Shown here in pieces: positions 1,866-36,262 of a stretch of 36,908 nucleotides of DNA; the stretch's first letter is position 1, and the number at the start of each line of letters is the position of its first letter. Both the position numbers and the translations under genes were made by a program. The DNA is from Clostridiales bacterium (GTDB lineage Bacteria; Bacillota; Clostridia; Oscillospirales; Oscillospiraceae). The stretch lies in assembly GCA_003516765.1 (NCBI GenBank), contig DPCD01000166.1, forward strand, positions 1-36,908. Reading direction: 5' to 3'. The notes under the pieces are model-generated. The model was not told where the DNA came from. It saw nothing but the letters and a program-made list of their open reading frames with translations, and made no database searches.

Positions 1866-1866
1866 T

Positions 1867-17041: not shown

Positions 17042-18767
17042 GTGCAGTCCCTCCTGTCTGGCTTTCATAGAGCCTGTGATACGCCGGAACGGTCCGGAGA
17101 AGTTCCTCGTGCGTGCCGACGGCAGTTTTGCCGTCTTCCATGAAAATGACCTGCTGCAGCTGCGGGAAGTGATACAGCCGGTGCGAAATCAGGAAGACAA
17201 CCTTGTCTTTCGCGTAGTCCTGCAGCCTTGCAAAGATGGCGTCTTCCGTGCTGCGGTCGAGCGCGGAGAACGGATCGTCGAGAATCAGGACGGGTCTCGG
17301 ATGCGCCAGCGTTCTTGCCAGCGCCAGCCGCTGCGCCTGTCCGCCGGAAAGGCGTGTGCCGCCGCTGCCGATGACGGTTTGCGGTCCGTGCTCCATGCAG
17401 AGCACTTCATCTTGCAGGCAGACGGCTTTCAGATATGGCATGGCGTCCTGCTCGCTTCCGCACAGAACGTTGTTTTCGATCGTGTCGGCGCTCAGTTCCG
17501 GGTCGTGCCCCAGATAGCCAACCGCTGCGGCAAGCCGGCGCGGCGGGAGCGCGGAAAGCTCTGCCTGTCCGAATGCTGCCGAACCGCCGTAAGGCGCTTC
17601 GCAGAGAAATACCCGCCCGAAGGTCGATTTGCCGCAGGCGACGGGACCGGTCACGCCGATGATCTCGCCGGGCTGCGCCGTCAGGCTGAGTCCCGAGAAC
17701 ACAGGCGTTTCGCCATAGGAAAACGAGAGGCTTTCCAGCGTCACGGTCTGCGTGTCCACGATGGTGAGCGGCGCAAGCTTCTCGGGCGTTTTCATCAGCG
17801 GCTGGATGCGCTTCCAGGAGACCTCCGCCTTCTGCACGGAGTTAAAGAGCTTTGCCACATTGGACGATTTGACCGTCAGCCTGGTGAAGCAGGACAGAAA
17901 GGTGGTAAATGCTGCGATGTCCCAGGCGCGCCAGCCGGTGCCGAGCACGTTTTTCGCGCCGAACCACAAAATGAACAGCACGCCCGCCTCCGATATGGCA
18001 AGGTATAATGGCGGCAGGGCAGACTGCCGGACGCTGCTGCGCACGGCGGTTTTTTCATAGTCATCCAGCGCGGCTTCATACTGTGTCTCGCGGGCGCGTT
18101 CGCAGCCGTAAATCCGATAGGTCAGGGCGTTCTGCGCGCGGTCGAGCGTCGCGGCGTTCAATGCGCCTGCCGCTTTTTTATAAGCAGCGCCCGCGCGCTG
18201 CACCGGCTTTTTCATCCACGCTGCGCAAGCGTAGGACGCAGGCGTAAAAAGAAGACTCAGAAGCGCCAGCCGCCAGTCGTAGACCAGAAGCATGATGACA
18301 TAGCCGACCAGCGCCACGCCGGTATCAAAAACCTCCGTCGTAAACTTGCGCATGCCCTCGACGCAGTCGTCCACGTCGGAGATTGCCCTGGTCAGCAGCT
18401 CGCCCGCGCCCGCTTCTTCGAGTTCGGACCGGCGGCTTCTGACCAGATTGGCATACAGCACGCCCTTCATCCGGCGGTTGATGTTGTTGGCAAAGCGGCG
18501 GACATAGAAACGCTTGACAAACCGCGCCGCCTGCACTGCCAGTGTGACGAGAACGTAGAAAAGCACCAGCACTGCCATGCTTGCAGCGCGCGCGTTTCCG
18601 CCCAGAATGTCTGCCAGCCGCTGTGCCAGCTGCCCCTCAAACCACGGCGCGGCAAGGAGCCCGACGTTGTAGAAAAGCCCGGAGAGCGTCACGAAGATCA
18701 GGGGCAGAAGCTCGGCGCGGAAGTAGGAGAAAATCCGGTCCGGGCGAAAGTCGTTATTCTGCTTCAT
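17025..18767 (-). CDS. ABC exporter, fused TMD-NBD (heterodimer subunit with degenerate Walker B)
   Basis: ATG 18767; GPVACGKST, LSGGQ, LILDD, ISHRL. Confidence 0.9.
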   Translation of the reverse strand: MKQNNDFRPDRIFSYFRAELLPLIFVTLSGLFYNVGLLAAPWFEGQLAQRLADILGGNARAASMAVLVLFYVLVTLAVQAARFVKRFYVRRFANNINRRMKGVLYANLVRSRRSELEEAGAGELLTRAISDVDDCVEGMRKFTTEVFDTGVALVGYVIMLLVYDWRLALLSLLFTPASYACAAWMKKPVQRAGAAYKKAAGALNAATLDRAQNALTYRIYGCERARETQYEAALDDYEKTAVRSSVRQSALPPLYLAISEAGVLFILWFGAKNVLGTGWRAWDIAAFTTFLSCFTRLTVKSSNVAKLFNSVQKAEVSWKRIQPLMKTPEKLAPLTIVDTQTVTLESLSFSYGETPVFSGLSLTAQPGEIIGVTGPVACGKSTFGRVFLCEAPYGGSAAFGQAELSALPPRRLAAAVGYLGHDPELSADTIENNVLCGSEQDAMPYLKAVCLQDEVLCMEHGPQTVIGSGGTRLSGGQAQRLALARTLAHPRPVLILDDPFSALDRSTEDAIFARLQDYAKDKVVFLISHRLYHFPQLQQVIFMEDGKTAVGTHEELLRTVPAYHRLYESQTGGTAHEKQP

Positions 18768-19233
18768 CGGCTTCGACCCTCCCGGCTGCGCCTGTAAAGT
18801 GCGGGAAGCCCGCGCGGCTTTCCGCCTTGGACGCGGCATAGAGCTTGTTGAGCGCCGCGGCAAAAAGGGCTGCTTCTTCCGGCGTCAGCGCGCCCAGCAG
18901 GTACTCGTAAAACGCCGCCTCGATCTCTGCTTTGGAGGCTTTCAGGCGCTCTGCCTTCTGCGTCGGATACAGCAGCTGGCTGCGCCGGTCGTTCGGTGCG
19001 TCCCTGCGTATGAGATAGCCCTTTGCCTCCAGATTCCGGGTCCGGCGCGCAATGGCAGCCTTGTCGGCGTGCAGAAGCTTGGCAAGTGCCGCCTGCGTGC
19101 AGCCAGGGTTGTGGCGCAGGGCGTGAATCAGATCGATTTCCGCCGTGCCGACGTCTGTTTCGCGCAGTGTGCGCAGGACGAGCTTTTCCGCCTCGCGCGC
19201 AATTTTGGTAATTTTTCGTTCGGTAATATCCAT
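18754..19233 (-). CDS. MarR-family transcriptional regulator
   Basis: PGCTQAALA..DKAAIAR..LEAKGYLIR..DRRS; GGAGG RBS. Confidence 0.9.
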   Translation of the reverse strand: MDITERKITKIAREAEKLVLRTLRETDVGTAEIDLIHALRHNPGCTQAALAKLLHADKAAIARRTRNLEAKGYLIRRDAPNDRRSQLLYPTQKAERLKASKAEIEAAFYEYLLGALTPEEAALFAAALNKLYAASKAESRAGFPHFTGAAGRVEADEAE

Positions 19234-19258
19234 GACAGCCTCCGTGCCTGAAAAGAAA

Positions 19259-19315
19259 GATGTATCTACATCGTTGTATGTACAACTATTATGCCACGGG
19301 TTTTTTATTTGTCAA
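19259..19315 (-). promoter_or_regulatory. marR promoter with two tandem 14-bp palindromic operators
   Basis: TTGACA-16 nt-CATAAT with TG extension; GATGTA-tc-TACATC (19259-19272) and GTTGTA-tg-TACAAC (19273-19286). Confidence 0.75.
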
Positions 19316-19499
19316 TAGCGACAGCGGCGTTTCAGACAAAAGCCGGAACGCCACTGTGCGGCATTCCGGTATGTACGAAAACGGAAAGGACCGTTTTCTC
19401 AGCGCGCTGCCGTCTCGCGTGTCAGGCGCAGATAGTCGGCATCAAATTGTGCAAGGTCCCTGGAAAACGGCACGGCGCAGGAACTGACCTCGCCGGTTT

Positions 19500-20345
19500 T
19501 TACTTTGTGTGCTTGAGAAAGCGGAGAAACTGCTCCGCCGCCGGAGAAAACGTCTGGTCCTTCTTCCATGCCAGCACCGTTCCGGTTTCCAGCCTCGGAG
19601 ACAGCGGCACAAAGGTCAGGGCGTCTGAAATGTTGTCAAGGTCAAAGCACAGCGCCGCGCCGATGCCGTTTCTCACCATGTTGGAGGCGTTCAGGATCAG
19701 ATTGTATGTCGCAGCGATTTCCAGCTTTTCGTAAGCGCTTCCGAACCAGCCTGCCAGCTCGTTGCGGACGGTTTCACGGCTGCTGATGAGAAGCGGCACA
19801 GCACAGAGGTCCTCCGGCGTGACGCCGGACTTCTGCGCCAGCGGATGCTCCTTCGGGACAAGCAGCCCCCAGCGGTCCTTTTGCGGCGTGCGCAAAAACG
19901 CATAGCGCCCGATGCTGACAGGCTCTGTGAGCAGCCCCATGTCGAGCAGCCCCTTTTCCATGCGCTCTTTTACGTCGTCGGCATTGGCGCTGTGAATGCG
20001 GAAGCGGACCTGCGGGTGAAGCTCCCGAAATTCCCGGATATGCTGAGACAGAAACGTCATCGACCGCGTTTCACCGCAGCCGATGGCAATCTCGCCGGTC
20101 AGCTCCGTTTCGTGATGCTGTAATTCCCGCTCTGCTTTGTCGGCAAGCTCTACGATCTCCTGCGCGCGTCTGCGCAGGAGCATGCCGTCTTCCGTCAGAA
20201 TCACGCGGTATTGGCTGCGGCGAAAGAGCTTGACGCCCAGCTCCGCTTCCAGCTGCATCAGCTGCCGGGAAAGCGTGGGCTGCGTTACGTGCAGAAGCGC
20301 CGCCGCCTTCGTGATGTTTTCCTCCCGCGCCACGGCGAGGAAGTA
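19500..20345 (-). pseudogene. LysR-family regulator lacking its start codon and first about 7 residues
   Basis: Homology starts at [29 protein letters not shown]; upstream DNA is the antisense of an oppF fragment. Confidence 0.85.
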
Positions 20346-20896
20346 CGGTCGGTCTGGCAAGAAGACTGAAAAACTCCTATCCGCACGAACTCGACGGTGG
20401 TCGCCGCCAGCGCATCGGCATCGCGAGAGCACTCAGCCTGAACCCCGCGTTCATCGTCTGCGACGAGCCTGTTTCGGCGCTGGATGTTTCCATTCAGGCG
20501 CAGATTCTCAACCTCATGCAGGACCTGCAGGAGCAGCTGGGGCTGACGTATCTGTTCATCACGCACAACCTTTCCGTCGTCAAGCATATTTCCAACAACA
20601 TCATGGTCATGTATCTGGGACAGATGGTGGAAAAGGCAAGCTCGGACGAGCTGTTTGCGCGTCCGCTGCATCCGTATACCAAGGCACTGCTTTCCGCGAT
20701 TCCTTCGGTCGATCTCGACCATCCGCGCCAGCACATTCAGCTCAAGGGCGAAATCACCTCGCCGATCAATCCGAAGCCCGGCTGCCGCTTTGCCGCGCGC
20801 TGCCCCTATGCGACCGAAGCGTGTCATCAGAAAACGCCGGAGCTGCGCGAGGTATATCCGGGGCACTTTGTCGCCTGCGACAAGGTCGAGGTGTAA
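20345..20896 (+). pseudogene. oppF: Oligopeptide/dipeptide ABC ATPase (OppF/DppF), C-terminal half only
   Basis: [69 protein letters not shown]; Walker A absent. Confidence 0.85.
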
Positions 20897-20917
20897 GCGC
20901 CGGATTGGAAAGAAGGC

Positions 20918-22027
20918 ATGAACATGGTAGATGAGAAGCGGCTGGTGCAGCGCTTTGTGCAGTACGCAGCCTGTGCCAGCGAGAGCGGGCACGAACGGCA
21001 AATGTGCCTGCTGCTGGAGCAGCAGCTGCAGGAGCTGGGGCTGGATGTTTTTCGCGACGACGTGCGCAAAGCCGTTCAGACAGACGGCTGGAATGTTTAT
21101 GCAAGCCTTCCCGGAACGGGAGAGCCCATGCTCTTTTCTGCGCATATGGACACGGTCTGCCCCGGAAGCGGCGTCAAGCCGGTCCTGCGGGACGGAACGA
21201 TTTATTCGTCCGGCGACACCATTCTGGGTGCGGACGACAAGGCGGGTATTGCCGAGATTCTGGAGGCGCTGACCTGCCTGCACGAATCCGGTCTGCCGCA
21301 CCGCCCGATTGAGGTGCTTTTTACCGTGCGGGAGGAAACCGGTCTGGAGGGCTCGGCAAACGCCTGCTATGACAGAATCCGGAGCAAAACCGGCGTGTCC
21401 TTTGACAGCGGTCCGATCGGGCGGATTGTCATTGAAAACCCAATCCAGCAGGTGCTGTTTCTGCAGGTGCAGGGAAAAGCGTCCCACTCCGGCAGCCATT
21501 ATGACGACGGCATACATGCGCTGAAATGCGCGGCGGACATGATTGCGCAGATTCCCTGCGGGCATGTCGACGCAGATACGGCGGTCAATGTCGCAAACTT
21601 CCTCAGCCCCGGTCAGGCAAATTCCGTTCCGGACCTGGCAAGCTTCGAGATCGAAATCCGCTGCTTCAGCGCGCAGAAGCTGGAGACCTTCCGGGAAAAG
21701 CTCCGGGCGATTTTTGAACGGGTGACGCAGAGCTACGGCGCGCAGTACACGCTGCGCACGGAGCTTCGCTCCCCGGGCATGCAGCTCGGCAGGGCGCATC
21801 CGCTCGTCGGACAGGTCTGCGCGGTCTATGAAGCGCTCGGTATCGAGCCGAAGATTGCCCGGGGCTACGGCGGTCATGACGGCGTCAGCTTTGCCGCGCA
21901 TGGACTGGCTGCGGCAAATCTCGGGTGCGGCTTTGCCGGGTGCCACAGTCTGGACGAGCATGTGCGCGTCGAGGATCTGACAAGGGGCGCCCGCGTGGCG
22001 CTGGGGCTTATGACCTGCTGCCGGTAA
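20918..22027 (+). CDS. M20 metallo-amidohydrolase (peptidase T-like)
   Basis: SAHMDTV, LGADDKAG, REE, GKASHSG, GGHD, HSLDE. Confidence 0.9.
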   Translation: MNMVDEKRLVQRFVQYAACASESGHERQMCLLLEQQLQELGLDVFRDDVRKAVQTDGWNVYASLPGTGEPMLFSAHMDTVCPGSGVKPVLRDGTIYSSGDTILGADDKAGIAEILEALTCLHESGLPHRPIEVLFTVREETGLEGSANACYDRIRSKTGVSFDSGPIGRIVIENPIQQVLFLQVQGKASHSGSHYDDGIHALKCAADMIAQIPCGHVDADTAVNVANFLSPGQANSVPDLASFEIEIRCFSAQKLETFREKLRAIFERVTQSYGAQYTLRTELRSPGMQLGRAHPLVGQVCAVYEALGIEPKIARGYGGHDGVSFAAHGLAAANLGCGFAGCHSLDEHVRVEDLTRGARVALGLMTCCR

Positions 22028-22040
22028 GAACGTGCGTACC

Positions 22041-22079
22041 GTCCCCGGGCTGCAGATCGGCAATCCGGGGACTTTTTTT
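22041..22079 (+). terminator. Terminator-like hairpin inside the cluster
   Basis: GTCCCCGG...CCGGGGAC followed by T7. Confidence 0.6.
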
Positions 22080-22111
22080 GAAAAACGAGGAGAAAAGGAC
22101 CATTACACCAT

Positions 22112-23506
22112 ATGGAAGAGAAAAAAACAGGAAGCTTTTCGGAAAAGATTGCCGCGTTTTCTCTGGGGCTGCGGTATGAGGATATTCCGGCATCGGTCAT
22201 AAGCTATGGAAAGCTGCTGCTGAAGGATACCTTCGGCGTGGCAATGGCAAGCCAGAAGCAGGACCATATCCATGCAATCGGAAAGACCATCGAGGAAATG
22301 GGCGGAACACCGCAGGCAACGCTCTGGGGCACGCAGGAACAGGCGAATCTTGCCAATGCGGTGCTCTATAACGCCGCACTGATTCACGGCGCGGATTATG
22401 ACGATACGCACGTCGGCGCCATCGTCCATCCGAGCGCCAGCGTCGTCAGCACGGCAATCACTGTCGGCGAAATGGTTCACGCCGACGGCAGACAGATTCT
22501 GACTGCGATCGTCGCGGGCTGGGAGATCATTGTGCGTCTGGGACTTGCTGCAAAGGGCAGATTCCACGACGTTGGCTTCCACGGCACGGGCATCGTGGCG
22601 CCGTTCGCGGCGGCATGTGTTGCGGCAAAGCTGCTCGGAGACAGTGAGCGCACGCTCAAAAACGCGCTCGGCATCTGCGGCAGCCAGGCGGCGGCGCTGC
22701 AGGAATTTCTCCGCGACGGCAGCTGGGTCAAAAAAATCCATCCCGGCTGGGGCGCGCACAGCGCGATCTATGCCCTCGGCATGGCGCGCAATGGCTTTAT
22801 CGGTCCGGATAAGGTTTTTGAGGGAGAATTCGGTCTTTATATGACGCACTGCGGCGGAACGGACGGACTGGAAGAAGCATTTTCCGATCTGGGGCGCGTC
22901 TGGCATACAACGGAAATTACGACAAAGCTGTATCCGGTCTGCCACATGACGCATTCGTTCATTGACTGCATGATTCGCCTGGAGGAGGAACACCACTTTG
23001 GCGCGGACGACATCGCCTCGGCGCAGTGCCGCATTGAAAGCCGCTGCTATCCGATTGTCTGCACGCCGCGCGAGGTTAAAACGAGACCGAACACGGATTA
23101 TATCATGCGGTTCAGTCTGCCGTATGTTGTGGCAATGGCAGCTGCAAAGCAGAAGGTCGGTCCGGCGGAAATTGATCTGAAATACGCAGAAGACACAAAA
23201 ATGCAGGCGCTGATGGATAAAATCCAGTGCGTCGAGGACGACAGCAAGCGCAATCCGGGCTTCTTTCCGGGCTATCTCACCGTGACATTGAACGACGGGC
23301 GCACATTTACCGCCGACCAGCGCTACGAAATGGGAACCCCGCAGAATCCGCTCAGTGTGGAGGCTGTCGATAAAAAATGCCGGGCAAATCTGGAGGCATT
23401 TTACACGGACGCGCAGATTGCGCAGATTTTGCAGCAGATTTCCGGATTTGAAACGCTGAAGGACGTCAATTGCCTGCTGGCATCGCTGATTGCCGGCGGG
23501 AAGTAA
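22112..23506 (+). CDS. MmgE/PrpD-family protein (paralogue 1)
   Basis: LKDTFGVA, HGADYDDTH..VHP, GFHGTG, KKIHPG, FEGEFG, KLYPVCH, GTPQNP. Confidence 0.9.
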   Translation: MEEKKTGSFSEKIAAFSLGLRYEDIPASVISYGKLLLKDTFGVAMASQKQDHIHAIGKTIEEMGGTPQATLWGTQEQANLANAVLYNAALIHGADYDDTHVGAIVHPSASVVSTAITVGEMVHADGRQILTAIVAGWEIIVRLGLAAKGRFHDVGFHGTGIVAPFAAACVAAKLLGDSERTLKNALGICGSQAAALQEFLRDGSWVKKIHPGWGAHSAIYALGMARNGFIGPDKVFEGEFGLYMTHCGGTDGLEEAFSDLGRVWHTTEITTKLYPVCHMTHSFIDCMIRLEEEHHFGADDIASAQCRIESRCYPIVCTPREVKTRPNTDYIMRFSLPYVVAMAAAKQKVGPAEIDLKYAEDTKMQALMDKIQCVEDDSKRNPGFFPGYLTVTLNDGRTFTADQRYEMGTPQNPLSVEAVDKKCRANLEAFYTDAQIAQILQQISGFETLKDVNCLLASLIAGGK

Positions 23507-23523
23507 TACGAAAGGAATTCGTT

Positions 23524-24783
23524 ATGGGACAAACACTTGTAGAAAAAATCATTGGAAAAAATGTCGGTCATCCCGTAAAAGCCGGCGAAACGGTGATTGT
23601 CAACGTGGACTTTGCCGCGCTGCATGACGGCTCCGGTCCTCTGATGGTGCGGCTTCTGAAAGAGCGCGCGTATGATAAGGACCCTGTTTTCGATCCGAAC
23701 CGGATGCTCTTTGCCAATGAGTTCGGACCGGAATCCACACGCGAGGTGGCAAACGAGCATGCGCTTTGCCGCTGCTATGCGCTCGAGCATGGCTGCCACT
23801 GGGAAGAGGGCGGCACGGGTCATGTACACGCGCACATCTATGAAAGCTTCCTGAAATGCGGCACGGTCTGCATCGTCGGCGACTCCCACACCACGGTCCA
23901 CGGCGCATACGGCTGCTTTGCAACCGGCTGCGGTTCGACCGACATGGTGGCAGTGACCCGCTTCGGAAAGACGTGGATCAAGGTGCCCGAAACCTTCCGC
24001 ATCAATGTCGAGGGCGCGCTGCCGAAGGGCGTTTACTCCAAGGACATCATGCTGAAGCTCGCGAGCATCATCAAGTCCGATCAGGCAATTTACAAGTCGC
24101 TGGAATTCCGCGGCAGCACGATTTCGTCTTTGTCCATGGAGGGACGTCTGACCATCACCAGCATGGGCGTCGACGTCGGCGCAAAGAATGCGATCATGGA
24201 AACGGACGAGCACACGCGCGAATATCTGAAGATCTTCGGTCGTGAAAACGACTATCTGGAGGTCAAGGGCGACGAAGAAGCAAACTACGAGCGCGTCATC
24301 AACATTGACGCAACGCAGCTCGAACCGCTGGTTTCCAAGCCGCACTATGTGGAAAATGTGGATCTGGCGCGCAATTGCAGCAGCGAGCATGTCAACATGG
24401 TCTTCATCGGCTCGTGCACCAACGGGCGCGTGGAGGATCTGCATATTGCAGCCGACATTCTGCGCGGCAAAAAGGTTGCGAAGGGAACGCGCCTGCTGGT
24501 GATTCCGAACTCCAACTATGTCTATCAGCAGTGCATGCGCGACGGCACGCTTCTGACGCTGGCAGAGGCTGGCGCCATGATCGAAGCGCCGAACTGCGGT
24601 CCGTGCATGGGCGTGCATCAGGGCATTCCGGCAGACAACGAGGTCGTTGTCGCTACGCAGAACCGGAACTTCAAAGGACGCATGGGAAATCCCACGGCAA
24701 GCATCTATCTGTCCAGCCCGGCAACCGCCGCTGCGACGGCGCTGACCGGCTACATCACCGATCCGCGCGAGGTCATGGGCTAA
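23524..24783 (+). CDS. Aconitase-family [4Fe-4S] hydro-lyase large subunit (LeuC/HacA-like)
   Basis: MGQTLVEKI, HDG, GDSHT, GSCTNGR, CGPCMG, NRNFKGRMG, YLSSPA. Confidence 0.92.
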   Translation: MGQTLVEKIIGKNVGHPVKAGETVIVNVDFAALHDGSGPLMVRLLKERAYDKDPVFDPNRMLFANEFGPESTREVANEHALCRCYALEHGCHWEEGGTGHVHAHIYESFLKCGTVCIVGDSHTTVHGAYGCFATGCGSTDMVAVTRFGKTWIKVPETFRINVEGALPKGVYSKDIMLKLASIIKSDQAIYKSLEFRGSTISSLSMEGRLTITSMGVDVGAKNAIMETDEHTREYLKIFGRENDYLEVKGDEEANYERVINIDATQLEPLVSKPHYVENVDLARNCSSEHVNMVFIGSCTNGRVEDLHIAADILRGKKVAKGTRLLVIPNSNYVYQQCMRDGTLLTLAEAGAMIEAPNCGPCMGVHQGIPADNEVVVATQNRNFKGRMGNPTASIYLSSPATAAATALTGYITDPREVMG

Positions 24784-24802
24784 GAAAAGGAGCGTAAGTG
24801 TT

Positions 24803-25309
24803 ATGATAAAAGATTCGATTCAGGGTCGTGCATGGAAATTCGGAAGCAACGTCAGTACCGACTCCATTGCCCCCGGCAGACTGATCTCCCTGCGGGCAAA
24901 TCCGCCGGAGTATGCCAAGCATGTTCTTGAAGATGCCCGTCCCGACTTTGTCAAGGGCGTCAAGCAGGACGATTTTATCGTTGCCGACCGGAACTTCGGC
25001 TGCGGTTCCAGCCGTGAGATTGCCGCAATTATCATCAAGCTTGCCGGCGTCGGCGCGGTCCTTTCCAAATCGTTCGGTCGGATTTTCTACCGCAACGCCA
25101 TCAATAACGGCATGCTGCTCATTGAGTGTGACACCGACCGGATTGAAGAGGGCGACGAGCTGTTTGTGGATGTCAAGAACCGCGTCATCCGCAAGATCAA
25201 CGACCCGGCGTTCTCCATGCCGTTTACGCTGTCGGAGAAGGAAATCAAGATCGTCAACGAGGGCGGCTTGCTCAACTACATCGAGAATCACAATTCTCTG
25301 GATATCTGA
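24803..25309 (+). CDS. Aconitase-family hydro-lyase small subunit (LeuD/HacB-like)
   Basis: GRAWKFG, NFGCGSSRE, SFGRIFYRNAINNG, GGLLNY; AAGGAG RBS. Confidence 0.92.
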   Translation: MIKDSIQGRAWKFGSNVSTDSIAPGRLISLRANPPEYAKHVLEDARPDFVKGVKQDDFIVADRNFGCGSSREIAAIIIKLAGVGAVLSKSFGRIFYRNAINNGMLLIECDTDRIEEGDELFVDVKNRVIRKINDPAFSMPFTLSEKEIKIVNEGGLLNYIENHNSLDI

Positions 25310-25310
25310 T

Positions 25311-26672
25311 ATGGAAGCATTGAGACAGCTTGCAGCCTTTGTGCAGGAGCTTCGTCTGGAGGATCTGCCGCAGGACGTGCGCGATGCCGCGCGCTACTGC
25401 GTGCTGGACACGCTGGGCTCTGCGCTCGGTGCTGCGGAAAATGAGGAGCTTGCTGCCATCGCGCGGGAATACGCGCAATGGACGGGGCTCGGCGAAAATA
25501 ACCGCAGCGCGAGGCTCTGGGGCAGCGCGCAGCGGACCAATCTGATGAACGCCGTCTTCCTCAACGGCATGATGGCGCACCAGCTGGAGCTGGACGATGT
25601 GCATACTGCGTCCAAATCCCATGTCGGCGCGGTCGTGGTGCCGGCGGCATGGGCGGTCGCGGAAGCACTCGGCTGCAGCGGCAAGACGTTTCTGGAGGCG
25701 GTCGTCGCCGGCTACGAGGTGATGGGGCGCGTCGGAAAGGCAATGGACGTTGCCAGCAACCGCAAGCGCGGCTGGCACACGACGGGTATCATCGGAACGT
25801 TCGGCGCCGCTGCCGCTGCCTGCAAACTGTTCGGTCTGACGCAGGAGCAGACCGCGAACGCACTCGGGCTTGCCGGCACGCAGTCGTGCGGTCTGTGGGC
25901 GTTTCTGGCAGAAGGCGCTACCTGCAAAAAGCTGCATACCGGCAGGGCTGCCGTCAACGGTGTTGCTTCCTGCCTGCTCGCAAAAAGCGGCATGACCGGC
26001 GCGATTCATATTCTTGACGCGAAGGACGGAGGACTCTATCCGGCAGTCAGCGACAGCTGGGACATGGAAAAACTGACCGAGGGTCTGGGGCAGAGCTACG
26101 AGATCACCCGGATGGACAAAAAGCCGTATCCCTGCTGCCGCACGACGCATCCGAACATCGACGCCGCGCTGCGGCTGCGCGCAGAAGGTGTCCGCGCGCA
26201 GGATGTGGCGCAGGTGCTGGTGGAAACCTATGAGGTCGGCGTTCTGCAATGCGGCTTTTCCAAGTATCCGGAAAGCCCGGTGGAGGCAAAGTTCAGTACG
26301 CCCTTCACCGCAGCGTGCGCACTGGTCAAGGGCCATGTGAATCAGGCGGATTTTGACGAGCAGACGCTGCAGGATGCGCAGATTCGCCGCATCGCGGAGC
26401 ACACCAGCGTTGTTGCCGCGCCGCTTTTTACCGAGCGGTATCCGAAGCAGTGGGGCAGCCGCATGACAATCACCTGCACCGACGGCAGCCGCCGCGTCTG
26501 TCAGATTGACAACATGTCCGGCAGCGTGGCAGTGCCGCTGAGCCCGGAGCAGGAGCAAAGCAAATTCCTGGGTCTGGCAGCTGCCTGCATGGATCTGCCG
26601 CAGGCGCAGAGGCTCATGGAAGAGGTGCTGCGCATCGAGCAGAAGCAGACGCTGCCGCAGGTTGGAATGTGA
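25311..26672 (+). CDS. MmgE/PrpD-family protein (paralogue 2)
   Basis: ATG 25311, 1 nt after the leuD-like stop; LDTLG, HQLELDDVH..SH, GWHTTG, KKLHTG, KPYPCCR, AKFS. Confidence 0.9.
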   Translation: MEALRQLAAFVQELRLEDLPQDVRDAARYCVLDTLGSALGAAENEELAAIAREYAQWTGLGENNRSARLWGSAQRTNLMNAVFLNGMMAHQLELDDVHTASKSHVGAVVVPAAWAVAEALGCSGKTFLEAVVAGYEVMGRVGKAMDVASNRKRGWHTTGIIGTFGAAAAACKLFGLTQEQTANALGLAGTQSCGLWAFLAEGATCKKLHTGRAAVNGVASCLLAKSGMTGAIHILDAKDGGLYPAVSDSWDMEKLTEGLGQSYEITRMDKKPYPCCRTTHPNIDAALRLRAEGVRAQDVAQVLVETYEVGVLQCGFSKYPESPVEAKFSTPFTAACALVKGHVNQADFDEQTLQDAQIRRIAEHTSVVAAPLFTERYPKQWGSRMTITCTDGSRRVCQIDNMSGSVAVPLSPEQEQSKFLGLAAACMDLPQAQRLMEEVLRIEQKQTLPQVGM

Positions 26673-26682
26673 GGATTGCAAT

Positions 26683-28026
26683 ATGGAAAATTACACGCAG
26701 ACGCTGGTCCGGTTTGTTTTGCAGACAAGGACGGAGGATATTCCGCAGAACGTCATCGAGCTGGCAAAAAAGCACTTTCTCGACTGTGTCGGCGCAGCGC
26801 TTGCGGAGGCGGCAGAACCGCGCAGCCAGATTGTCCGGCGCTACTTTTCCGCGCTCGGTGCGGACGGAGACTGCCGCGTCGTCGGACATGGAACAAGACT
26901 GAGCGTAGAAAATGCGGCGTTCTGCAACGGCATTCTGGCGCACACGATCTGCTTTGACGATTCCGGTCCCTCCCATCCGTCCGTGACCATCGTCCCGGGG
27001 CTTCTTGCGCTGGCAGAGCGGTATCATTTTTCGGGAAAAGAGATTCTTGCTGCGCAGGTGCTGGGCTATGAGGTGTTTCAGCGCCTGAACGCCGCGACCG
27101 CGGAAGCGTGGGAGATGCGCAAGCGCGGCTGGCATCCGACCGGCTTTTTCGGAGCTGTCGCCGGAGCAGCCCAGACTGCGCGCCTGCTCGGGCTTTCGCA
27201 GCAGCAGGCGCAGCGCGCGCTCGGCATTGCGGCAACGCTTGGCGGCGGTCTGAGCCAGAACATCGGAAACATGGGCATGGGGCTTCATGCTGGAAACGCC
27301 AGCCGGAACGGCATTACCGCCGCGCTGCTTGCAAAGGAAGGATTTACCGCGGACGAGCGTCCGCTGGAAGGGCGCTTTGGACTCTTGGATGCACTGTGCG
27401 GACCCGGTCAGTATGATGCGTCCAGACTCACCGCAAACCTCGGCGCGCCGTTTGGGATGGAAAACCCGGGCATTACCATCAAGCCGTATCCGAACTGCTG
27501 GGCGCACCACAAGGTTCTGCAGGCAGTGCTGGAACTGCGCGAGAAGCACGCGATTGCACCGGAAAACGTCGAGCGGGTCGAAGTTGACCTGCAGACGGAC
27601 AAGCCAACCTATCGCTACACCGCGCCCAAAACCGATCTGGAAGCGCGCTACAGCCTCGGCTACGGCATCGCGCTGGCGCTGCTGGACGGAGAACTGACAC
27701 TGGCGCAGTACGCACCGGAGCGCCTGCAGCGGCAGGACACGCTGGAGATGCTCGGCAGAATTCAGAATGTGCCTGCCGCAGACGAACAGGCACGGCAGAC
27801 GGTCACCATCTGCATGAAAAACGGGCAGCGGTATTCCGGGCGGGTCCAATATTCAAAGGGACATCCGCTTTACGATCCGATGTGCCTTTCGGAGGTGCAG
27901 GAGAAGTATCGCCTGCTGGCGGGACGTCTGCTGCCGCAGCATCAGGTGGAAGCTTCGATGCAGGCAATTGTGCACCTGGAAGAGGCAGCGGACGTGTCGG
28001 ATGTGATGGACCTGCTGGTCGTTTGA
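26683..28026 (+). CDS. MmgE/PrpD-family protein (paralogue 3)
   Basis: ATG 26683 after GAGG; LDCVG, HTICFDDS..SHP, GWHPTG, LEGRFG, KPYPNC, ARYS, KGHP. Confidence 0.9.
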   Translation: MENYTQTLVRFVLQTRTEDIPQNVIELAKKHFLDCVGAALAEAAEPRSQIVRRYFSALGADGDCRVVGHGTRLSVENAAFCNGILAHTICFDDSGPSHPSVTIVPGLLALAERYHFSGKEILAAQVLGYEVFQRLNAATAEAWEMRKRGWHPTGFFGAVAGAAQTARLLGLSQQQAQRALGIAATLGGGLSQNIGNMGMGLHAGNASRNGITAALLAKEGFTADERPLEGRFGLLDALCGPGQYDASRLTANLGAPFGMENPGITIKPYPNCWAHHKVLQAVLELREKHAIAPENVERVEVDLQTDKPTYRYTAPKTDLEARYSLGYGIALALLDGELTLAQYAPERLQRQDTLEMLGRIQNVPAADEQARQTVTICMKNGQRYSGRVQYSKGHPLYDPMCLSEVQEKYRLLAGRLLPQHQVEASMQAIVHLEEAADVSDVMDLLVV

Positions 28027-28058
28027 AAACACGTTTGTGATACTGGGAGGTTGTATTT

Positions 28059-28628
28059 ATGCTGTTTTGTGCCGCATGTCAGAGCAAAAGCTGCGCTGCC
28101 CGGATGGGCCAGACGCAGACCTTTCCGAAGGGCTGCCCCGGACAGGGAGAAAAGATGGATGCCTGGCTGCAGGAGTATGACGAGCCGCTCGATCGGCTGA
28201 TGGCGCAGAAATCTGCACTCTGCAGCCCGGACCACAGCGAGTGCCGTCTGGCAAAGACCATGCGCTTTGCCAAGGAGTGCGGCTTTCACAAGCTGGGACT
28301 GGCGTTTTGCGATACGCTCGACGAGCAGGGGCGGCAGATTGACGCCATTTTGCGCCGGAACGGCTTTCAGGTAGAAAGCGTCCGCTGCAAGGTGGGGCAC
28401 ATTGACCGGAGCGCCATCGGCGTTCCCTCCGCGCAGAAGGCAATGTGCAACCCGATTGCGCAGGCGGAGCTGCTGAACGAAGCCGGAACGGAGCTGAACA
28501 TCATCGTCGGTCTGTGCGTCGGTCACGACGCGCTGTTCATTCGCCACTCCAAAGCGCCCGTTACGGTGCTGGCGGCAAAGGACCATGTGTATGACAATGC
28601 GCCGCTGGAGTGCCTGAAGGATATGTAG
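28059..28628 (+). CDS. DUF1847-family Cys-rich putative metal-binding protein
   Basis: CAAC...C...GCP, KLGLAFC, CKVG, MCNPIAQA, GLCVGHD, APVTVLAAKD; GGAGG RBS. Confidence 0.85.
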   Translation: MLFCAACQSKSCAARMGQTQTFPKGCPGQGEKMDAWLQEYDEPLDRLMAQKSALCSPDHSECRLAKTMRFAKECGFHKLGLAFCDTLDEQGRQIDAILRRNGFQVESVRCKVGHIDRSAIGVPSAQKAMCNPIAQAELLNEAGTELNIIVGLCVGHDALFIRHSKAPVTVLAAKDHVYDNAPLECLKDM

Positions 28629-28664
28629 CTTTGTCTGCCGGGTTTTCTGACTCTGACAGAGTAA

Positions 28665-28897
28665 AATCGCACCGCAGAGGATTCCCTCTGCGGTGCGATT
28701 CAGGCTGTCGAGGATATTTCCAGACGAAATGTTTCGGAAAGGAAGATAGTGTGAAAGAAACCCATCAGGGGTGTCTTTCGCGTTCAATCAATTCCTTTTT
28801 CAAACTTTTCTGAAGTTTGAAAAAGGATTGCGCGTGTCAAAAAGAACTTTTTGACACGCGCAATCGCACCGCAGAGGATTCCCTCTGCGGTGCGATT
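28665..28897. repeat. Identical 36-bp palindromic direct repeats around a 161-bp palindrome-rich insert (MITE or IS scar)
   Basis: AATCGCACCGCAGAGGATTCCCTCTGCGGTGCGATT at 28665-28700 and 28862-28897; perfect internal IRs at 28793-28827 and 28826-28865. Confidence 0.85.
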
Positions 28898-28900
28898 GCG

Positions 28901-29248
28901 TTATGATGGTTCGTCCGGAGAATCCGGCGGCGCTTCTTCCACCAGCTCGCTGGTGAGAAGACTTTTTTGAAGGCTTGCCGCCTGCTCCAGATCCTCCCAC
29001 GGCACGAACAGCTCCAGCTCGGCGTGGTTCTGCCCGAAGGCGACGGAATACAGGACGCTCCTCGCCTGCCGGGTCAGGCAGCGGATGCCCGCGTCCTTCA
29101 GAAGCTCCTGCATCGCCTCACCCCACGGGGAGACCATGGTGGACAGATAACAAAAGTCGCCGTCTTTGGGCGCGCGCAGAGGCGTTTTGCCGCAGTAGGG
29201 GCAGACCAATCCTTCACAGATCAGATGGCAGTTTTCGCAGTAGTACAT
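28901..29248 (-). CDS. Small protein with N-terminal zinc ribbon (DUF2007-like)
   Basis: ATG 29248 after AAGGAGG; CENC...CPYC, LLKDAGI, ELFVPWEDLEQA. Confidence 0.7.
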   Translation of the reverse strand: MYYCENCHLICEGLVCPYCGKTPLRAPKDGDFCYLSTMVSPWGEAMQELLKDAGIRCLTRQARSVLYSVAFGQNHAELELFVPWEDLEQAASLQKSLLTSELVEEAPPDSPDEPS

Positions 29249-29268
29249 GGCAAGCCCTCCTTCGGCAT

Positions 29269-30612
29269 TTACGCCTTGAGCTGTGCGCGCTCCTCTTTTG
29301 TCTTGCAGAAATGCTCCAGCACGGGGACAAACAGGCACGCCAGTATGCAGCCCGTGAAGCCGCCGTTATACAGCAGATAGCCGCCGTGCAGCAGCGGCAC
29401 ACAGGTGACGAGCGTATAGTGCGCCACACCGGCGAGGATGCCGGCAAACCAGCCGTATCTGCCAGCAACAGGGGAAAGACCGTTTGCAAAGCAGAGCCCC
29501 ACAATGATTGCCTGCGCGTTGATGGCAAGCGCGCCTTCGGTTCCCATCACGCCGCAAAGCGCCTTCATGGCAAAGCTCGCAGCGACATAGCCCACCATGA
29601 TGGACCACACGTTTGCCGGATGGCTTCCTTTGAAGCAGCAGCAGACCATGCAGAACACGCAGCCGAGCGTCACCGCGTTCCAGTTCGCGCCGATGAGCGT
29701 GTAGTAAAGGACGATGAAAAGTCCGTAGACGCCGAAGTTCAGAACGGCAGTCTCAAAGCCGTATTTTGCGCCGTAGTCTGCGCCGAAACCGGTGTCCTTC
29801 AGAAGCTGCCCGTACTTTTTGCCGCCGCCGAGGAAGATCCCCAGCGCGATGGCAAGCAGAAAGACGACCGCGCAGAACGTGTAGCACAGCGCCGGGAACG
29901 AGTCGCCGGTGCCCACACCGGAAGCCTCGGGAAGCACGCCGCCCAGCATCTTATACAGCAGCGCCCGCAGGAAAAACGCGGTCAGACCCATCGGAAGCGC
30001 CGCAGAGTACAGGCAGTAGCCCTTGTGGACATTCGGGCTGTGCGCGAGCCCTGCCGGCAGGATAAAGCCCACACAGGCGCAGACGACCAACGTCAGCACA
30101 AAGCTGCCGAATGTCACGCCGTGCAGTTCCGCGCCGGGATAGCGCAGAAGAAGGTCGGTCGCCAGCGGGCAAAGACCCGTTGCAAAGAGCATCGCATTGA
30201 CCAGACTTCCAAGCGGCTTTTTCTTCACGAGGCTGTACAGCGCGACGCCCACGAACAGGAACCACACGTTCAGAATCGTGATGCCCCAGAAGCTGAAGCC
30301 CGCCGTCAGGAAAAACGCCAGGACGCTCAAGCCGTCGGGCTTTGCGCCGGGCAGCGTATACAGCAGGCTGCAGATCAGGCAGATCAGAAATACGTTCAAA
30401 AAGGTTGCGGCAAAGCCGCCGTAGCTCGCGTCGAAAAAGCTCTTGGTGAGCTGCGCGGGCTGCGTGCAGAGCTGGGCGAGGTTTGCCAGAAGCTCCTGCA
30501 GACCTGTGCCGGAGTCGATCATGCAGACGATCGTGGCAATGGCGCACAGCGCCGTAAAAAGACCAAACAGACGGCGGATGGCGCCTGCCGGTTCCTTGAA
30601 TTGTTCTTTCAC
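29269..30612 (-). CDS. Polytopic membrane protein (DUF1576-like)
   Basis: GTG start after AAAGGAAG; many TM segments; HKGYCLY, GLSPVAGRYGWFAG, HGGYLLYNGGFT. Confidence 0.75.
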   Translation of the reverse strand: MKEQFKEPAGAIRRLFGLFTALCAIATIVCMIDSGTGLQELLANLAQLCTQPAQLTKSFFDASYGGFAATFLNVFLICLICSLLYTLPGAKPDGLSVLAFFLTAGFSFWGITILNVWFLFVGVALYSLVKKKPLGSLVNAMLFATGLCPLATDLLLRYPGAELHGVTFGSFVLTLVVCACVGFILPAGLAHSPNVHKGYCLYSAALPMGLTAFFLRALLYKMLGGVLPEASGVGTGDSFPALCYTFCAVVFLLAIALGIFLGGGKKYGQLLKDTGFGADYGAKYGFETAVLNFGVYGLFIVLYYTLIGANWNAVTLGCVFCMVCCCFKGSHPANVWSIMVGYVAASFAMKALCGVMGTEGALAINAQAIIVGLCFANGLSPVAGRYGWFAGILAGVAHYTLVTCVPLLHGGYLLYNGGFTGCILACLFVPVLEHFCKTKEERAQLKA

Positions 30613-30685: not shown

Positions 30686-31564
30686 TTACAGCGTACGTTC
30701 GGCTGCCTCGACGACATGACCGATCAGAACCGACGTTGTGACGGAGCCGACACCGCCGGGAACCGGAGTGATCGCGCCGACAATCGGCTCAACCTCGGAG
30801 AAGACTGCGTCGCCCGCGATGGCGCCCTTGCCGCCCTTGGCATTGACTTTCTCGGGGTCCCAGTTGATGGAGACGTCGATGACGATCTGATCTTCGGAGA
30901 CGTAGTCCTTCGTCAGGCTGTTCAGAACGCCCGCGGCGGAGACCAGAATGTCTGCCTTGCGTGCGATACCGGCGACGTCCACGGTCTTGGTGTGGCACAC
31001 GGTGACGGTTGCATTTTTTGCCATGAGCATCATGGCTGCGGGCTTGCCGACGACGAGAGAACGACCAATGACGACGGCGTTCTTGCCCTTGCAGTCGATG
31101 CCGTAGTAGTCGAGAATTTCCATGCAGGCCTGCGGCGTGCAGGGTGCAAAGCCCAGCTTCTTGCCGGTGAAGACGCCGGCGTTGGAGAGGTCGGTCATGC
31201 AGTCGACGTCCTTGGCGGCAGCCAGACGGTTGCAGATCTCATCCTGATCCGCCTTGAGGTGCTTGGGAAGCGGGCGGAACATCAGGCAGCCGTGGATGGA
31301 ATCGTCGGCATTGATCGCTTCGATCTGGGCAATCAGCGCTTCCTTGGTCACGTCCTCGGGTAGGACGAACTTCTGAACCTCGACGCCGATCAGCTCGGCT
31401 CTCGCGGTTGCGCCCTTTTCATAGGACAGGTCGGAGGGGTTTTCGCCGCAGCGGACGATTGCCAGCTTCGGGGTAACGCCTTTTTCCTTGAGAGCCGCGA
31501 CACGCGCCTGCAGCTTCTCGTTCATCGCAGCGGTAACTTCTTTGCCCAGCAGTAATTTAGCCAT
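30686..31564 (-). CDS. folD: Methylene-THF dehydrogenase (FolD family)
   Basis: KDVD, PCTP, GRSLVVGKP, ATVTVCH, GDA, TPVPGGVG. Confidence 0.95.
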   Translation of the reverse strand: MAKLLLGKEVTAAMNEKLQARVAALKEKGVTPKLAIVRCGENPSDLSYEKGATARAELIGVEVQKFVLPEDVTKEALIAQIEAINADDSIHGCLMFRPLPKHLKADQDEICNRLAAAKDVDCMTDLSNAGVFTGKKLGFAPCTPQACMEILDYYGIDCKGKNAVVIGRSLVVGKPAAMMLMAKNATVTVCHTKTVDVAGIARKADILVSAAGVLNSLTKDYVSEDQIVIDVSINWDPEKVNAKGGKGAIAGDAVFSEVEPIVGAITPVPGGVGSVTTSVLIGHVVEAAERTL

Positions 31565-31581
31565 GCGTCATATCTCCTTCG

Positions 31582-32202: not shown

Positions 32203-32445
32203 GAAATGTTTCTCCTTAATCAGAAAGAGAGGCGGCGGATAACCGCCGCCTCCCGGTTGGGTTTGCGTATACAGCTTTTAGCCTCGCAGAGTTTTATGCG
32301 TCAGCATAAAATCAATTTGAAATTATTTTTTTGTGAGGGCTTTACCCTTGCAAAAAATCCTGCTCAGGCTGCAAACGTGCGAGCGCAGCAAGTGCGCTGC
32401 CGCAGACTGCAAATTCTTCGAACAAAAGCCTGCTTTTGTTCGATT

Positions 32446-34257: not shown

Positions 34258-34388
34258 GGATATTTCCTCCTTGTTCTTCCGGGGCTTTCACTCCGCCCCC
34301 GGGAAAGAATAGCTTTGGCGCTATGCATCCCTTCATCCGCAGCCAACAGCGCCATGCGGAATCGATACTTTTTTATCGGTTCGTTCTT

Positions 34389-35614: not shown

Positions 35615-35625
35615 GATGTTTCCTC

Positions 35626-36258: not shown

Positions 36259-36262
36259 CGTA

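Follow-up and report, generated by a model that had tools for sequence, protein, structure and literature searches.

Within a 36,908-nucleotide (nt) stretch of DNA from a pig-gut bacterium (hereafter the window), we identified a four-gene unit, PrpD1-LeuC-LeuD-PrpD2, that other genomes share in identical order at 28 loci and that is often accompanied there by carboxylate transporters and a C-S lyase. The window covers positions 1 to 36,908 of contig C110, which is 38,864 bases long, in a metagenome-assembled genome (MAG) of 2.02 Mb, which consists of 206 contigs and is 75% complete. We tentatively read it as holding a horizontally acquired and partly dismantled two-module catabolic system, which may act anaerobically on a carboxylate-rich cysteine S-conjugate of the succinate or aconitate type; we give this reading somewhat less than an even chance. 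It draws on gene identities, conservation, co-occurrence in relatives, a gene fusion, and intact catalytic motifs, from which the substrate and each reaction step are inferred.

Pfam and NCBIfam scans, combined with the sequence itself, bore out the eight co-oriented genes with short gaps that an earlier reading made from the letters alone (the sequence-only reading) had described, all on the plus strand. They encode the C-terminal 183 codons of an OppF/DppF-type ABC ATPase (20345..20896; NF008453 positions 148-327 of 334; oligo_HPY, 2.5e-19), a PepT-like M20 metallopeptidase (20918..22027; Peptidase_M20 and M20_dimer), PrpD1 of the MmgE/PrpD family (22112..23506; MmgE_PrpD_N 2.3e-61, MmgE_PrpD_C 1e-33), the LeuC-like large subunit (23524..24783) and the LeuD-like small subunit (24803..25309) of an aconitase-family [4Fe-4S] hydro-lyase, PrpD2 (25311..26672) and PrpD3 (starting with TTG at 26662 or ATG at 26683 and ending at 28026), both assigned by Pfam to the same family as PrpD1, and DUF1847, a Cys-rich putative metal-binding protein (28059..28628; PF08901, 159 bits against a cut-off of 25). 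From PrpD1 to DUF1847, the spacing between genes ranges from an 11-nt overlap to a 32-nt gap. The G+C content of the cluster (56 to 62%) matches that of its flanks.

For the neighborhood survey, a profile of PrpD2 homologues yielded 60 loci from contigs representing one genome per species, which were then searched by tblastn with the window proteins. PrpD2 had 816 homologues at E ≤ 0.001, the top 120 of them at 56 to 100% identity. LeuC (>60% identity) occurred together with PrpD2 in 35 of the 60 loci (core loci). PrpD1-LeuC-LeuD-PrpD2 was found in the window's order in 28 of these, with PrpD1 orthologues (53 to 72% identical) heading the core; in six others the contig ended at or just before LeuC, and in the last one (L027) no PrpD1 was present in the 1.46 kb available upstream. 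With 28 loci of other genomes sharing this order, the arrangement of the core goes beyond chance. The sequence-only reading had treated all eight genes as one cluster, but across the 60 loci only these four were kept as a unit. A PrpD3 orthologue was present in 5 of the 35 core loci, DUF1847 in 2, Opp genes in 7, and M20 genes, of other subfamilies, in 2. PrpD3, DUF1847, Opp, and peptidases are variable accessories.

LeuC and LeuD are 63 to 93% identical across Bacillota, Synergistota, and Spirochaetota, and the PrpDs are 48 to 72% identical; the LeuC of the window has 68 to 90% identity to its counterparts in the relatives. The carriers include Oscillospirales (Oscillibacter, Lawsonibacter, Anaerotruncus, Marasmitruncus), Lachnospiraceae ([Clostridium] asparagiforme, Enterocloster lavalensis, Hungatella), Christensenellales, Fusibacter, Synergistaceae, and Treponemataceae. 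At the same time, of 400 other genomes sampled from the window's family only one had a LeuC orthologue, and of 24 genomes of its genus one had a PrpD2 homologue, at 31% identity. Because of this high identity across phyla and the rarity in the window's own family and genus, the unit looks horizontally mobile and sporadic.

PrpD2-type genes were also seen in other settings. CitE-CitF and a YbhJ-type aconitase accompany a PrpD2-like gene (44 to 49% identical), without LeuCD, in L043 (16146-20900) and L052 (4085-11344). A PrpD2-like gene stands beside a LysR gene in the Acidaminococcus loci L046, L047, L054, L056, and L057.

The three PrpD paralogues are only 25 to 32% identical to one another, and each shows both domains of the MmgE/PrpD family (N domain, 1.2e-58 to 3.6e-74; C domain, 1.1e-28 to 1.9e-35). 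Iminodisuccinate (IDS) epimerase (2hp0/2hp3) was the best or a near-best solved relative of all three, with E values from 1.1e-55 to 1.7e-32 (PrpD2, 1.7e-47; PrpD3, 1.1e-55). For PrpD1, the best solved relative was B. subtilis "IRG1" (7bra), which is presumably YxeQ, alongside IDS epimerase. The substrate of IDS epimerase, the nearest relative of all three PrpDs, is an N-(1,2-dicarboxyethyl) compound. The equivalog models of 2-methylcitrate dehydratase (TIGR02330, NF006943, and NF042438) gave 28 to 63 bits against cut-offs of 458 to 950, the best scores being 63.2 against 575 and 54.7 against 458. Solved 2-methylcitrate dehydratases matched the PrpDs at E values of 1e-6 to 1e-19 or were not among the matches listed. 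Profile scores and solved relatives upheld the earlier assignment of these proteins to the MmgE/PrpD family and placed them near IDS epimerase and far from methylcitrate dehydratase.

According to the accessible parts of PMC12290011, about one in five prokaryote species has an MmgE/PrpD homologue, and only four activities are characterized: 2-methylcitrate dehydratase, cis-aconitate decarboxylase, IDS epimerase, and methylsuccinate isomerase. All known substrates of the family share a 1,4-dicarboxylate skeleton and undergo enolate chemistry (PMC12290011, same parts). When the residues that bind the dicarboxylate and stabilize the enolate (His, Glu, His, His, Lys, and Lys in that paper) were mapped to its numbering by position and motif rather than by structure, H90, H104, H156, and K271 were kept in all three PrpDs. 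By the same mapping, E93 is replaced by Asp in PrpD1 and by Cys in PrpD3, and the KK preceding LH is MG in PrpD3. Judged from these positions, PrpD3 appears to be without two of the family's carboxylate-binding residues.

LeuC scored above the cut-offs of NF001614 (481 bits; cut-off 385), TIGR02086 (472; 410), and TIGR01343, and LeuD above that of TIGR02087 (171.6; 109). The cluster ligands of LeuC are kept (C298 in IGSCTNGR, C358 and C361 in NCGPCMG), as is GDSHT, and LeuD keeps the GSSRE motif with the catalytic Ser. On these motifs and scores, the pair classifies as a two-subunit aconitase-family hydro-lyase of the LeuCD/HacAB/DmdAB type. The archaeal-type isopropylmalate/citramalate isomerase and homoaconitase (4kp1, 4kp2, 3vba, 2pkp) have the same two subunits, Fe-S ligands, and catalytic motifs; maleate and dimethylmaleate hydratases are presumably relatives of the same type. 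However, the specificity loop of LeuD reads GRLISLR(A/S)NP, in contrast to YLVY in 3vba (isopropylmalate/citramalate) and YLRT in 2pkp (homoaconitase), and the gene setting is catabolic. Of 37 sequences (the window's and those of 36 orthologues), 30 had GRLISLR exactly and the remaining 7 had variants of it differing in one residue.

At the equivalog level, the subunits stayed below the cut-offs of the 3-isopropylmalate dehydratase models TIGR02083 (388; cut-off 611) and TIGR00170 (196; 560) and of the methanogen homoaconitase models NF040615 (407; 550) and NF040625 (150; 230), and LeuC was below all of the LEU2, leuC, and HacA_Meth cut-offs. In line with the sequence-only reading, which had denied that this is a leucine, methylcitrate, or lysine operon, domains of leuA, leuB, prpB, prpC, and homocitrate synthase were not found among the window's open reading frames (ORFs) of at least 150 amino acids (aa); prpB and prpC were also not found in the annotated flanks of the relatives. 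The whole MAG has one Iso_dh gene, located beside the aconitase gene, and one weak HMGL-like match. A leucine, lysine, or methylcitrate operon was rejected in view of the equivalog scores and the missing partner genes. For annotation, this means that these LeuCD genes are not leucine genes and that these "PrpD" genes are not methylcitrate dehydratase genes.

Partners of the core were counted by Pfam and NCBIfam annotation and tblastn in the 27 core loci whose flanks extended over at least 8 kb. At least one transporter was encoded in 26 of them, and a LysR regulator, usually divergent, in 24. Among the importers, the tripartite tricarboxylate transporter (TTT) TctCBA was the most frequent (15/27), followed by Opp (7/27) and TAXI-TRAP (6/27); an AbrB-family membrane protein was present in 8 loci. 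A PatB-family C-S lyase occurred in 14 of the 27 loci, and an aconitase-family hydratase of the YbhJ type (~770 aa; NF008503, 1343 bits) also in 14. Seven loci had an MR_MLE enolase with a second TctCBA; this enolase is acid-sugar-dehydratase-like and lies inside the operon. Less frequent were an AhpC/TSA-like protein of 190 aa (4/27), an M24 peptidase (3/27), PepC (2/27), and citrate lyase (2/27), and isocitrate dehydrogenase was encoded in one core locus with a short flank (L016). The sequence-only reading had not foreseen the most telling of these partners, since the window does not contain them: the PatB C-S lyase, the YbhJ-type aconitase, the TTT and TRAP importers, and a thioredoxin-fold protein with a CxxC motif. 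Its proposal of an importer of polycarboxylates held insofar as the relatives link these enzymes to importers of carboxylate-rich solutes, including Opp like that of the window fragment, but TTT and TRAP were commoner than Opp.

The YbhJ-type aconitase of the window's MAG is encoded between a divergent citrate synthase gene and the only Iso_dh gene. Given this position, the "hydratase YbhJ" family is the working aconitase in this lineage, and the ~770-aa hydratase of the core loci is the usual aconitase of these organisms. It is the only aconitase of the MAG (G000, contig C194, 5351-10758; L071; NF008503, 1131 bits).

The gene annotated as a class I/II "aminotransferase" in the core loci matched the PatB model TIGR04350 at 433 to 460 bits (cut-off 340), and the best solved relatives of its product were cysteine-S-conjugate beta-lyases, PatB, cystalysin, and MalY. 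Cluster-linked PatB copies from different phyla are 58 to 67% identical to the Fusibacter copy, while the best match to the cluster PatB in 399 sampled Clostridia genomes had 48% identity. Furthermore, among five genomes with the core but no adjacent PatB, four encode a member of the orthogroup elsewhere. The higher identity across phyla than within the sampled Clostridia, together with the presence elsewhere in four of five core genomes, indicates that this PatB is dedicated to the system. A D-cysteine-desulfhydrase-family enzyme takes the place of PatB in L039.

Satellite copies of this PatB were found in further gene contexts. C. asparagiforme has LysR-PatB-DUF1847-TctCBA, with a DUF1847 protein 59% identical to that of the window. 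In Hungatella, an AhpC-like gene lies upstream of OppABCDF-PatB-PepC, and this Opp is 78 to 88% identical to the Opp of core locus L026. UBA6114 (L173) has a PrpD3-TAXI-TRAP-M24-AhpC-like-PatB operon, and Marasmitruncus has PatB-TctCBA just beyond the citrate lyase genes that flank its core. The PrpD2 homologues P0081 and P0094 are natural fusions to a C-terminal AhpC/TSA-like thioredoxin-fold domain with a CTTC motif, which is 46% identical to the free-standing protein of L012. Like the L039 enzyme and a TIGR01891-family M20D amidohydrolase in L028, these fusions hint at sulfur chemistry.

The UBA6114 MAG shows an unusual expansion of these genes (L015, L041, L043, L048, and L172-L174). It contains the core once, three further PrpD2-type loci, and three cluster-type PatB copies in addition to the PrpD3-TRAP-M24-AhpC-like-PatB operon.

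The family assignment of DUF1847, a Cys-rich accessory, was confirmed. Nine residues (C7, C12, C26, C84, C110, C130, C153, H156, and D157) are invariant in 28 aligned sequences. The domain is rare, being above the cut-off in 8 of 300 Clostridia genomes. Its gene follows PrpD2 in L008 and L038, and in two of seven other contexts it follows the gene for the reductive activase RACo in corrinoid methyltransferase operons. The idea that DUF1847 handles metal or Fe-S gained ground, since seven invariant Cys residues and the RACo context fit the role of a metal or redox helper. A sequence search of the PDB gave nothing below E 0.39, a protein-atlas search returned DUF1847 clusters and no model, and a literature search found no paper naming DUF1847. 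The two RACo contexts (L157, 7254-7937; L158, 3237-3923) comprise a B12-binding protein, two URO-D-type methyltransferases, RACo, DUF1847, and an NMT1-type ABC importer.

At the 5' end of the cluster, the importer is broken. OppF homology begins at the exact base (20345) at which the homology of a minus-strand, 5'-truncated LysR-family gene stops (19500..20345; Pfam HTH_1 and LysR_substrate). The OppF fragment has no start codon and no Walker A half, and adjoining oppA-D genes were not found in the Pfam and NCBIfam scans, so that a complete OppA, B, C, D, F (Opp/Dpp) set is missing. The fragment is 79% identical to OppF of L026 and L033, whose OppABCDF adjoins the core cluster, and the L026 copy is its closest relative. 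On the other side of the joint, LysR is without about seven N-terminal codons and its promoter; NCBIfam alignments start at profile position 8. An orthologue in a genome of the same genus (G010) is 85% identical, forms a 288-aa ORF, and has different neighbors. The window LysR is only ~25% identical to the LysR proteins that accompany the core elsewhere.

Logan contigs from four public runs (X1, X2, X3, and X11) were compared over 18500-23500. In three of the four (X1, X2, and X3), contigs break off or begin precisely at 20344/20345. One X3 contig, 8,153 nt long, continues for 3,946 nt past the LysR side into sequence unlike the window, and upstream of the oppF side contigs of X2 and X3 carry a further 842 and 823 nt. 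In X11, which may be the source sample of the window, a 222-nt contig spans the joint at a depth of 9.7, compared to 8.5-11.3 in the flanks. An assembly chimera at 20345 was considered and dropped because of this bridging contig of matching depth, with the proviso that X11 may be the source sample. We read the joint as a real, strain-specific deletion of ~5 kb; this inferred size matches about oppA-D plus half of oppF, which are thus the DNA probably lost. Contigs in three of the four runs continue past the joint into sequence unlike the window and therefore suggest strains without the deletion; they are also what points to an intact arrangement LysR / oppABCDF-M20-... in such strains. The stretch 19300-22300 was present at 65 to 79% of the sampled words in 19 runs. 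An intact copy with its OppA, as expected from the sequence-only reading, was not recovered: when metagenomes were scanned with the M20 protein, a single close locus turned up (L072, 98% identical), and it begins within the oppF fragment; the other 32 loci were at most 42% identical.

The M20 protein belongs, by its profile matches, to the PepT-like branch of M20 enzymes, scoring below the peptidase T cut-offs of TIGR01883 (252.8; cut-off 274.25) and TIGR01882 (68; 285.75). Its best homologues in a family-wide search were 44% identical. One of them is encoded directly upstream of OppABCDF; in that other genome, the two make up a separate module, and the 20 kb fetched contain no PrpD genes. A hairpin followed by U7 at 22041..22079 on the plus strand resembles an intrinsic terminator (fold, -22.7 kcal/mol; z, -2.45; 3 of 200 shuffles fold as well) and separates M20 from PrpD1. 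The terminator consensus scan missed it, which we attribute to its long loop. Only 32 nt, including a ribosome-binding site, remain between the terminator and the start of PrpD1, and a promoter scan recognized none for the PrpD operon. With the terminator in front and 32 nt left, this operon appears to have neither a regulator of its own nor a recognizable promoter. M20 had been proposed as the amide-hydrolyzing step of the pathway; this assignment was not supported, given the intervening terminator and the fact that tblastn found no orthologue of the window M20 in any of the 60 loci.

Because the satellite PatB loci re-use accessory genes of the window, we propose that the system consists of two modules. 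Module A would comprise LysR and PrpD1-LeuCD-PrpD2, with or without the aconitase, and module B an importer and PatB, to which PrpD3, DUF1847, the CxxC protein, and peptidases may be added. The enzymes of module A are intact in the window, and module B is present in pieces (half of oppF, PrpD3, DUF1847, and perhaps M20). The preferred candidate substrate would be S-(2-succino)cysteine (2SC) or its glutathione- or peptide-borne forms, followed by the analogous aconitate or itaconate adducts. Free conjugates might be imported by TTT or TAXI-TRAP and peptide forms by Opp, the latter then being trimmed by PepC, M24, or M20. PrpD3, which is IDS-epimerase-like, could epimerize the acid-bearing carbon of the conjugate. 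PatB would cleave the C(beta)-S bond of the cysteine, giving pyruvate, ammonia, and a mercapto-di- or tricarboxylate. PrpD1 and PrpD2 might then convert the substituted succinate or tricarballylate by enolate chemistry, either epimerization or beta-elimination of the sulfur, and LeuCD would contribute Fe-S hydro-lyase chemistry, with fumarate/malate or cis-aconitate as the product. The co-encoded aconitase and, in a few relatives, citrate lyase or isocitrate dehydrogenase could finish the conversion. DUF1847 and the CxxC thioredoxin-fold protein may serve in metal, Fe-S, or thiol handling.

2SC would fit the tricarboxylate transporters, the likeness to IDS epimerase, and the analogy to the yxe operon discussed below; an aconitate adduct would account for the aconitase and for two epimerases being needed. 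Of the substrates named in the sequence-only reading, the comparative data favor the succinylated amino acid, or yxe-like, option, and no specific support was gained for siderophores, opines, or chelators. In its most explicit form, the proposal is that gut and sediment anaerobes have a pathway, independent of acetylation and oxygen, for succinated (or aconitate- or itaconate-adducted) cysteine and peptides, in which PatB frees a mercapto-polycarboxylate, the PrpDs and LeuCD epimerize it and eliminate the C-S bond, and DUF1847 and the CxxC thioredoxin-fold protein act as sulfur or Fe-S handling partners. This full version, with all its steps, we consider unlikely, though not negligibly so.

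Several known systems share parts of this arrangement. The IDS pathway epimerizes a heteroatom-substituted succinate before its lyase acts; it differs from the system described here in that it degrades an N-linked xenobiotic chelator in aerobic Agrobacterium and has no LeuCD partner. Similar to the window, the methylcitrate cycle combines a PrpD-family enzyme with an aconitase-family hydro-lyase, by which a hydroxy-tricarboxylate is isomerized in two half-reactions. However, prpB, prpC, and prpE are not present here, and the window has two or three PrpD paralogues. The (S)-(R)-methylsuccinate isomerase is a PrpD-family epimerase of a C2-substituted succinate and has the His, His, and Lys set in common with PrpD1 and PrpD2; its catalytic Tyr148 corresponds to Lys in PrpD2 by counting positions from the published numbering rather than by direct alignment, and it belongs to an itaconate cluster in an aerobic, CoA-dependent pathway of Proteobacteria (PMC12290011, accessible parts).

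Similar to the present system, the B. subtilis scm (yxe) operon for 2SC, a dicarboxylate linked to cysteine through sulfur, groups an importer, an M20-family amidohydrolase, and the PrpD-family protein YxeQ (PMC9706529 and PMC12757645, accessible parts). As far as these parts go (to November 2025), the described breakdown of S-alkylcysteine and 2SC needs N-acetylation and then either ScmK, a monooxygenase, or the class-I lyase 2SL, and no role is assigned to YxeQ. In contrast to these pathways, which according to the same sources all start with N-acetylation, the system of the relatives has a PatB beta-lyase, two or three PrpDs, the LeuCD hydro-lyase, and an aconitase. ScmL, ScmK, 2SL, and the NAC deacetylase did not appear when the window and the flanks of the relatives were annotated with Pfam, although no search was aimed at these families. 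The PatB/MalY cysteine-S-conjugate beta-lyases are represented by the relatives' partner enzyme, which passes the PatB model and has such lyases as its top solved relatives; it differs from other PatB/MalY proteins in forming a separate orthogroup tied to PrpD/LeuCD, DUF1847, and carboxylate transporters. A literature search, one phrasing of which may miss "MmgE/PrpD", found no description of this gene set or of a matching pathway. The families and the kind of system, a LysR-controlled catabolic operon for an acid or conjugate, are known, whereas the gene combination and the implied reactions appear not to be.

A number of points weigh against a sulfur conjugate as the substrate. The link to sulfur comes from gene neighborhood, co-occurrence, and a single fusion, and PatB is not adjacent to the core in 13 of the 27 well-flanked loci. 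E. lavalensis has the core, and no PatB orthologue was found in its genome (best match, 46%). Breakdown of 2SC leaves the aconitase, the citrate lyase, and the isocitrate dehydrogenase of L016 unexplained, all of which point to a C6 tricarboxylate, and the MR_MLE enolase with the second TctCBA would fit a hydroxy acid better. To our knowledge, no aconitate-cysteine conjugate is a natural metabolite, and we know of no aconitase-family or PrpD-family enzyme that eliminates sulfur. Moreover, the window's MAG, at 2.0 Mb assembled and 75% completeness, contained no orthologues of PatB, TctA or TctC of the TTT, AbrB, the AhpC-like protein, PepC, or CitEF. In the window strain, whose MAG is without these partners, the pathway may be inactive or serve another substrate, and the pair of Opp and M20 can be an ordinary peptide module.

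Catabolism of a sulfur-free tricarboxylate or hydroxy acid is a serious but rather doubtful alternative. Here the core would isomerize or epimerize an imported citrate analogue, such as hydroxycitrate, a non-physiological isocitrate, a stereoisomer of methylcitrate or homocitrate, or citramalate/citraconate. Following the logic of the methylcitrate cycle, PrpD would dehydrate and the aconitase-family enzyme rehydrate the compound to citrate or isocitrate for aconitase, citrate lyase, and isocitrate dehydrogenase, and PatB would be a side activity or serve a second substrate. The TTT importers (15/27), the YbhJ-type aconitase (14/27), which is a housekeeping enzyme in the window's own genome, the citrate lyase (2/27), the isocitrate dehydrogenase in the short-flank locus L016, and the acid-sugar-dehydratase-like MR_MLE enzyme in the operon (7/27) all suit such a route, as do the 13 of 27 loci with no adjacent PatB. 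The same holds for the conserved Arg in the LeuD loop, which is shared with homoaconitase, where the loop Arg binds the distal carboxylate. Yet this alternative leaves unexplained that the PatB orthogroup is confined to genomes with the system, that PrpD2 is fused to a CxxC thioredoxin-fold domain, and that peptidases and Opp importers recur. As for possible substrates, a literature search for hydroxycitrate found no paper containing that word among those listed, and trans-aconitate is already served by a PrpF-type isomerase route, predicted in gut anaerobes according to the accessible parts of PMC11495376; a role of PrpD as a trans-aconitate isomerase was dropped on this ground. A decaying remnant with no current function, in the form of a mobile-island fragment minus its importer, regulator, and lyase, is compatible with any of these substrates and, for the copy in this genome, quite unlikely in our estimate. 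The reduction of Opp to half of oppF, the LysR truncation at the same joint, the lack of a core-type LysR and of a promoter-like site, the missing PatB and transporter orthologues in the MAG, and twin 36-nt palindromes at the 3' end speak for it. On the other hand, every one of the six enzyme genes has a complete open frame and intact motifs, 19300-22300 was found at 65 to 79% of sampled words in 19 runs, contigs in three of four runs suggest strains without the deletion, and the MAG is only 75% complete.

Closest to the sequence-only reading is an amide- or amine-linked polycarboxylate (a citrate siderophore, an opine, an aminopolycarboxylate such as IDS, or an N-succino compound) that is imported by Opp, hydrolyzed by M20, and then epimerized or dehydrated. 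It accords with the PrpDs being nearest to IDS epimerase, with Opp flanking the core in 7 of 35 loci, with M20 enzymes of other subfamilies in L028 (a TIGR01891-family M20D amidohydrolase; 239.6 bits, cut-off 153.75) and L040, with an OCD/mu-crystallin-family enzyme in L040, and with the weak likeness of the L026 OppA to NikA and CntA. We nevertheless consider it improbable: the window M20 has no orthologue in the 60 loci, lies behind a terminator, and has relatives in Opp plus M20 modules without PrpD; neither a C-N lyase nor an opine oxidase recurs; TTT and TRAP are commoner than Opp; and PatB is a C-S, not a C-N, lyase. Biosynthetic 2-oxoacid chain elongation (to leucine, to isoleucine via citramalate, or to lysine via aminoadipate), with LeuCD as the isomerase, has in its favor that LeuC and LeuD pass archaeal-type isopropylmalate isomerase/homoaconitase subfamily models and that the MAG has no other LeuCD. 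It is hardly credible, given that a LeuA/NifV-type synthase and LeuB were not found in the window, that the single Iso_dh gene of the MAG stands beside the aconitase gene, that the LEU2, leuC, and HacA equivalog cut-offs were not reached, that a LeuC orthologue occurs in only 1 of 400 other genomes of the family, and that the core of the relatives lies among transporters under LysR control.

The analysis defines a tightly conserved, mobile PrpD-LeuCD-PrpD unit with recurrent partners, for which cultured carriers exist ([Clostridium] asparagiforme DSM 15981, Enterocloster lavalensis, Marasmitruncus massiliensis, and Fusibacter ferrireducens); the window copy is partial, and its value lies in the wider family to which it led. 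If the sulfur-conjugate reading is true, it would account for the recycling of succinated cysteine by strict anaerobes, this compound being a universal damage product that is excreted into the gut. The reading would also add C-S elimination, and thus new reaction types, to two large enzyme families and give a first context to DUF1847 and a first functional context to the YxeQ-like branch of PrpD. If instead the substrate is free of sulfur, the genes would encode an undescribed tricarboxylate route in gut Clostridia.

The unit ends in a hairpin-rich intergenic region (28665..28897) just 3' of DUF1847. Two identical 36-nt palindromes (28665-28700 and 28862-28897), 197 nt apart, bracket two perfect hairpins (28793-28827 and 28826-28865), and the MAG has no copies of the palindrome beyond these two. 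Stacked terminators, or a scar left at an insertion boundary, are possible explanations for them. An Rfam scan of 19000-29500 found no RNA family.

Elsewhere in the window, positions 1000-7000 have a G+C content of 40 to 43%, compared to 51 to 62% over 7001-36000, and could represent a foreign island or a place where the MAG contig was joined chimerically. This stretch encodes a sugar-type ABC importer (Peripla_BP_4, double ABC_tran, and BPD_transp_2) and a 489-aa ORF without a Pfam match. A 662-aa protein encoded at 11122-13110 has a full-length match to DUF4914 (1023 bits). On the minus strand, 30686-36907 holds a methyl-branch Wood-Ljungdahl-type set of FolD, an FTCD_C cyclodeaminase-like protein, and formate-tetrahydrofolate ligase, followed by a trigger-factor-like protein, DUF3786, and the C-terminal part of RACo at the end of the window.

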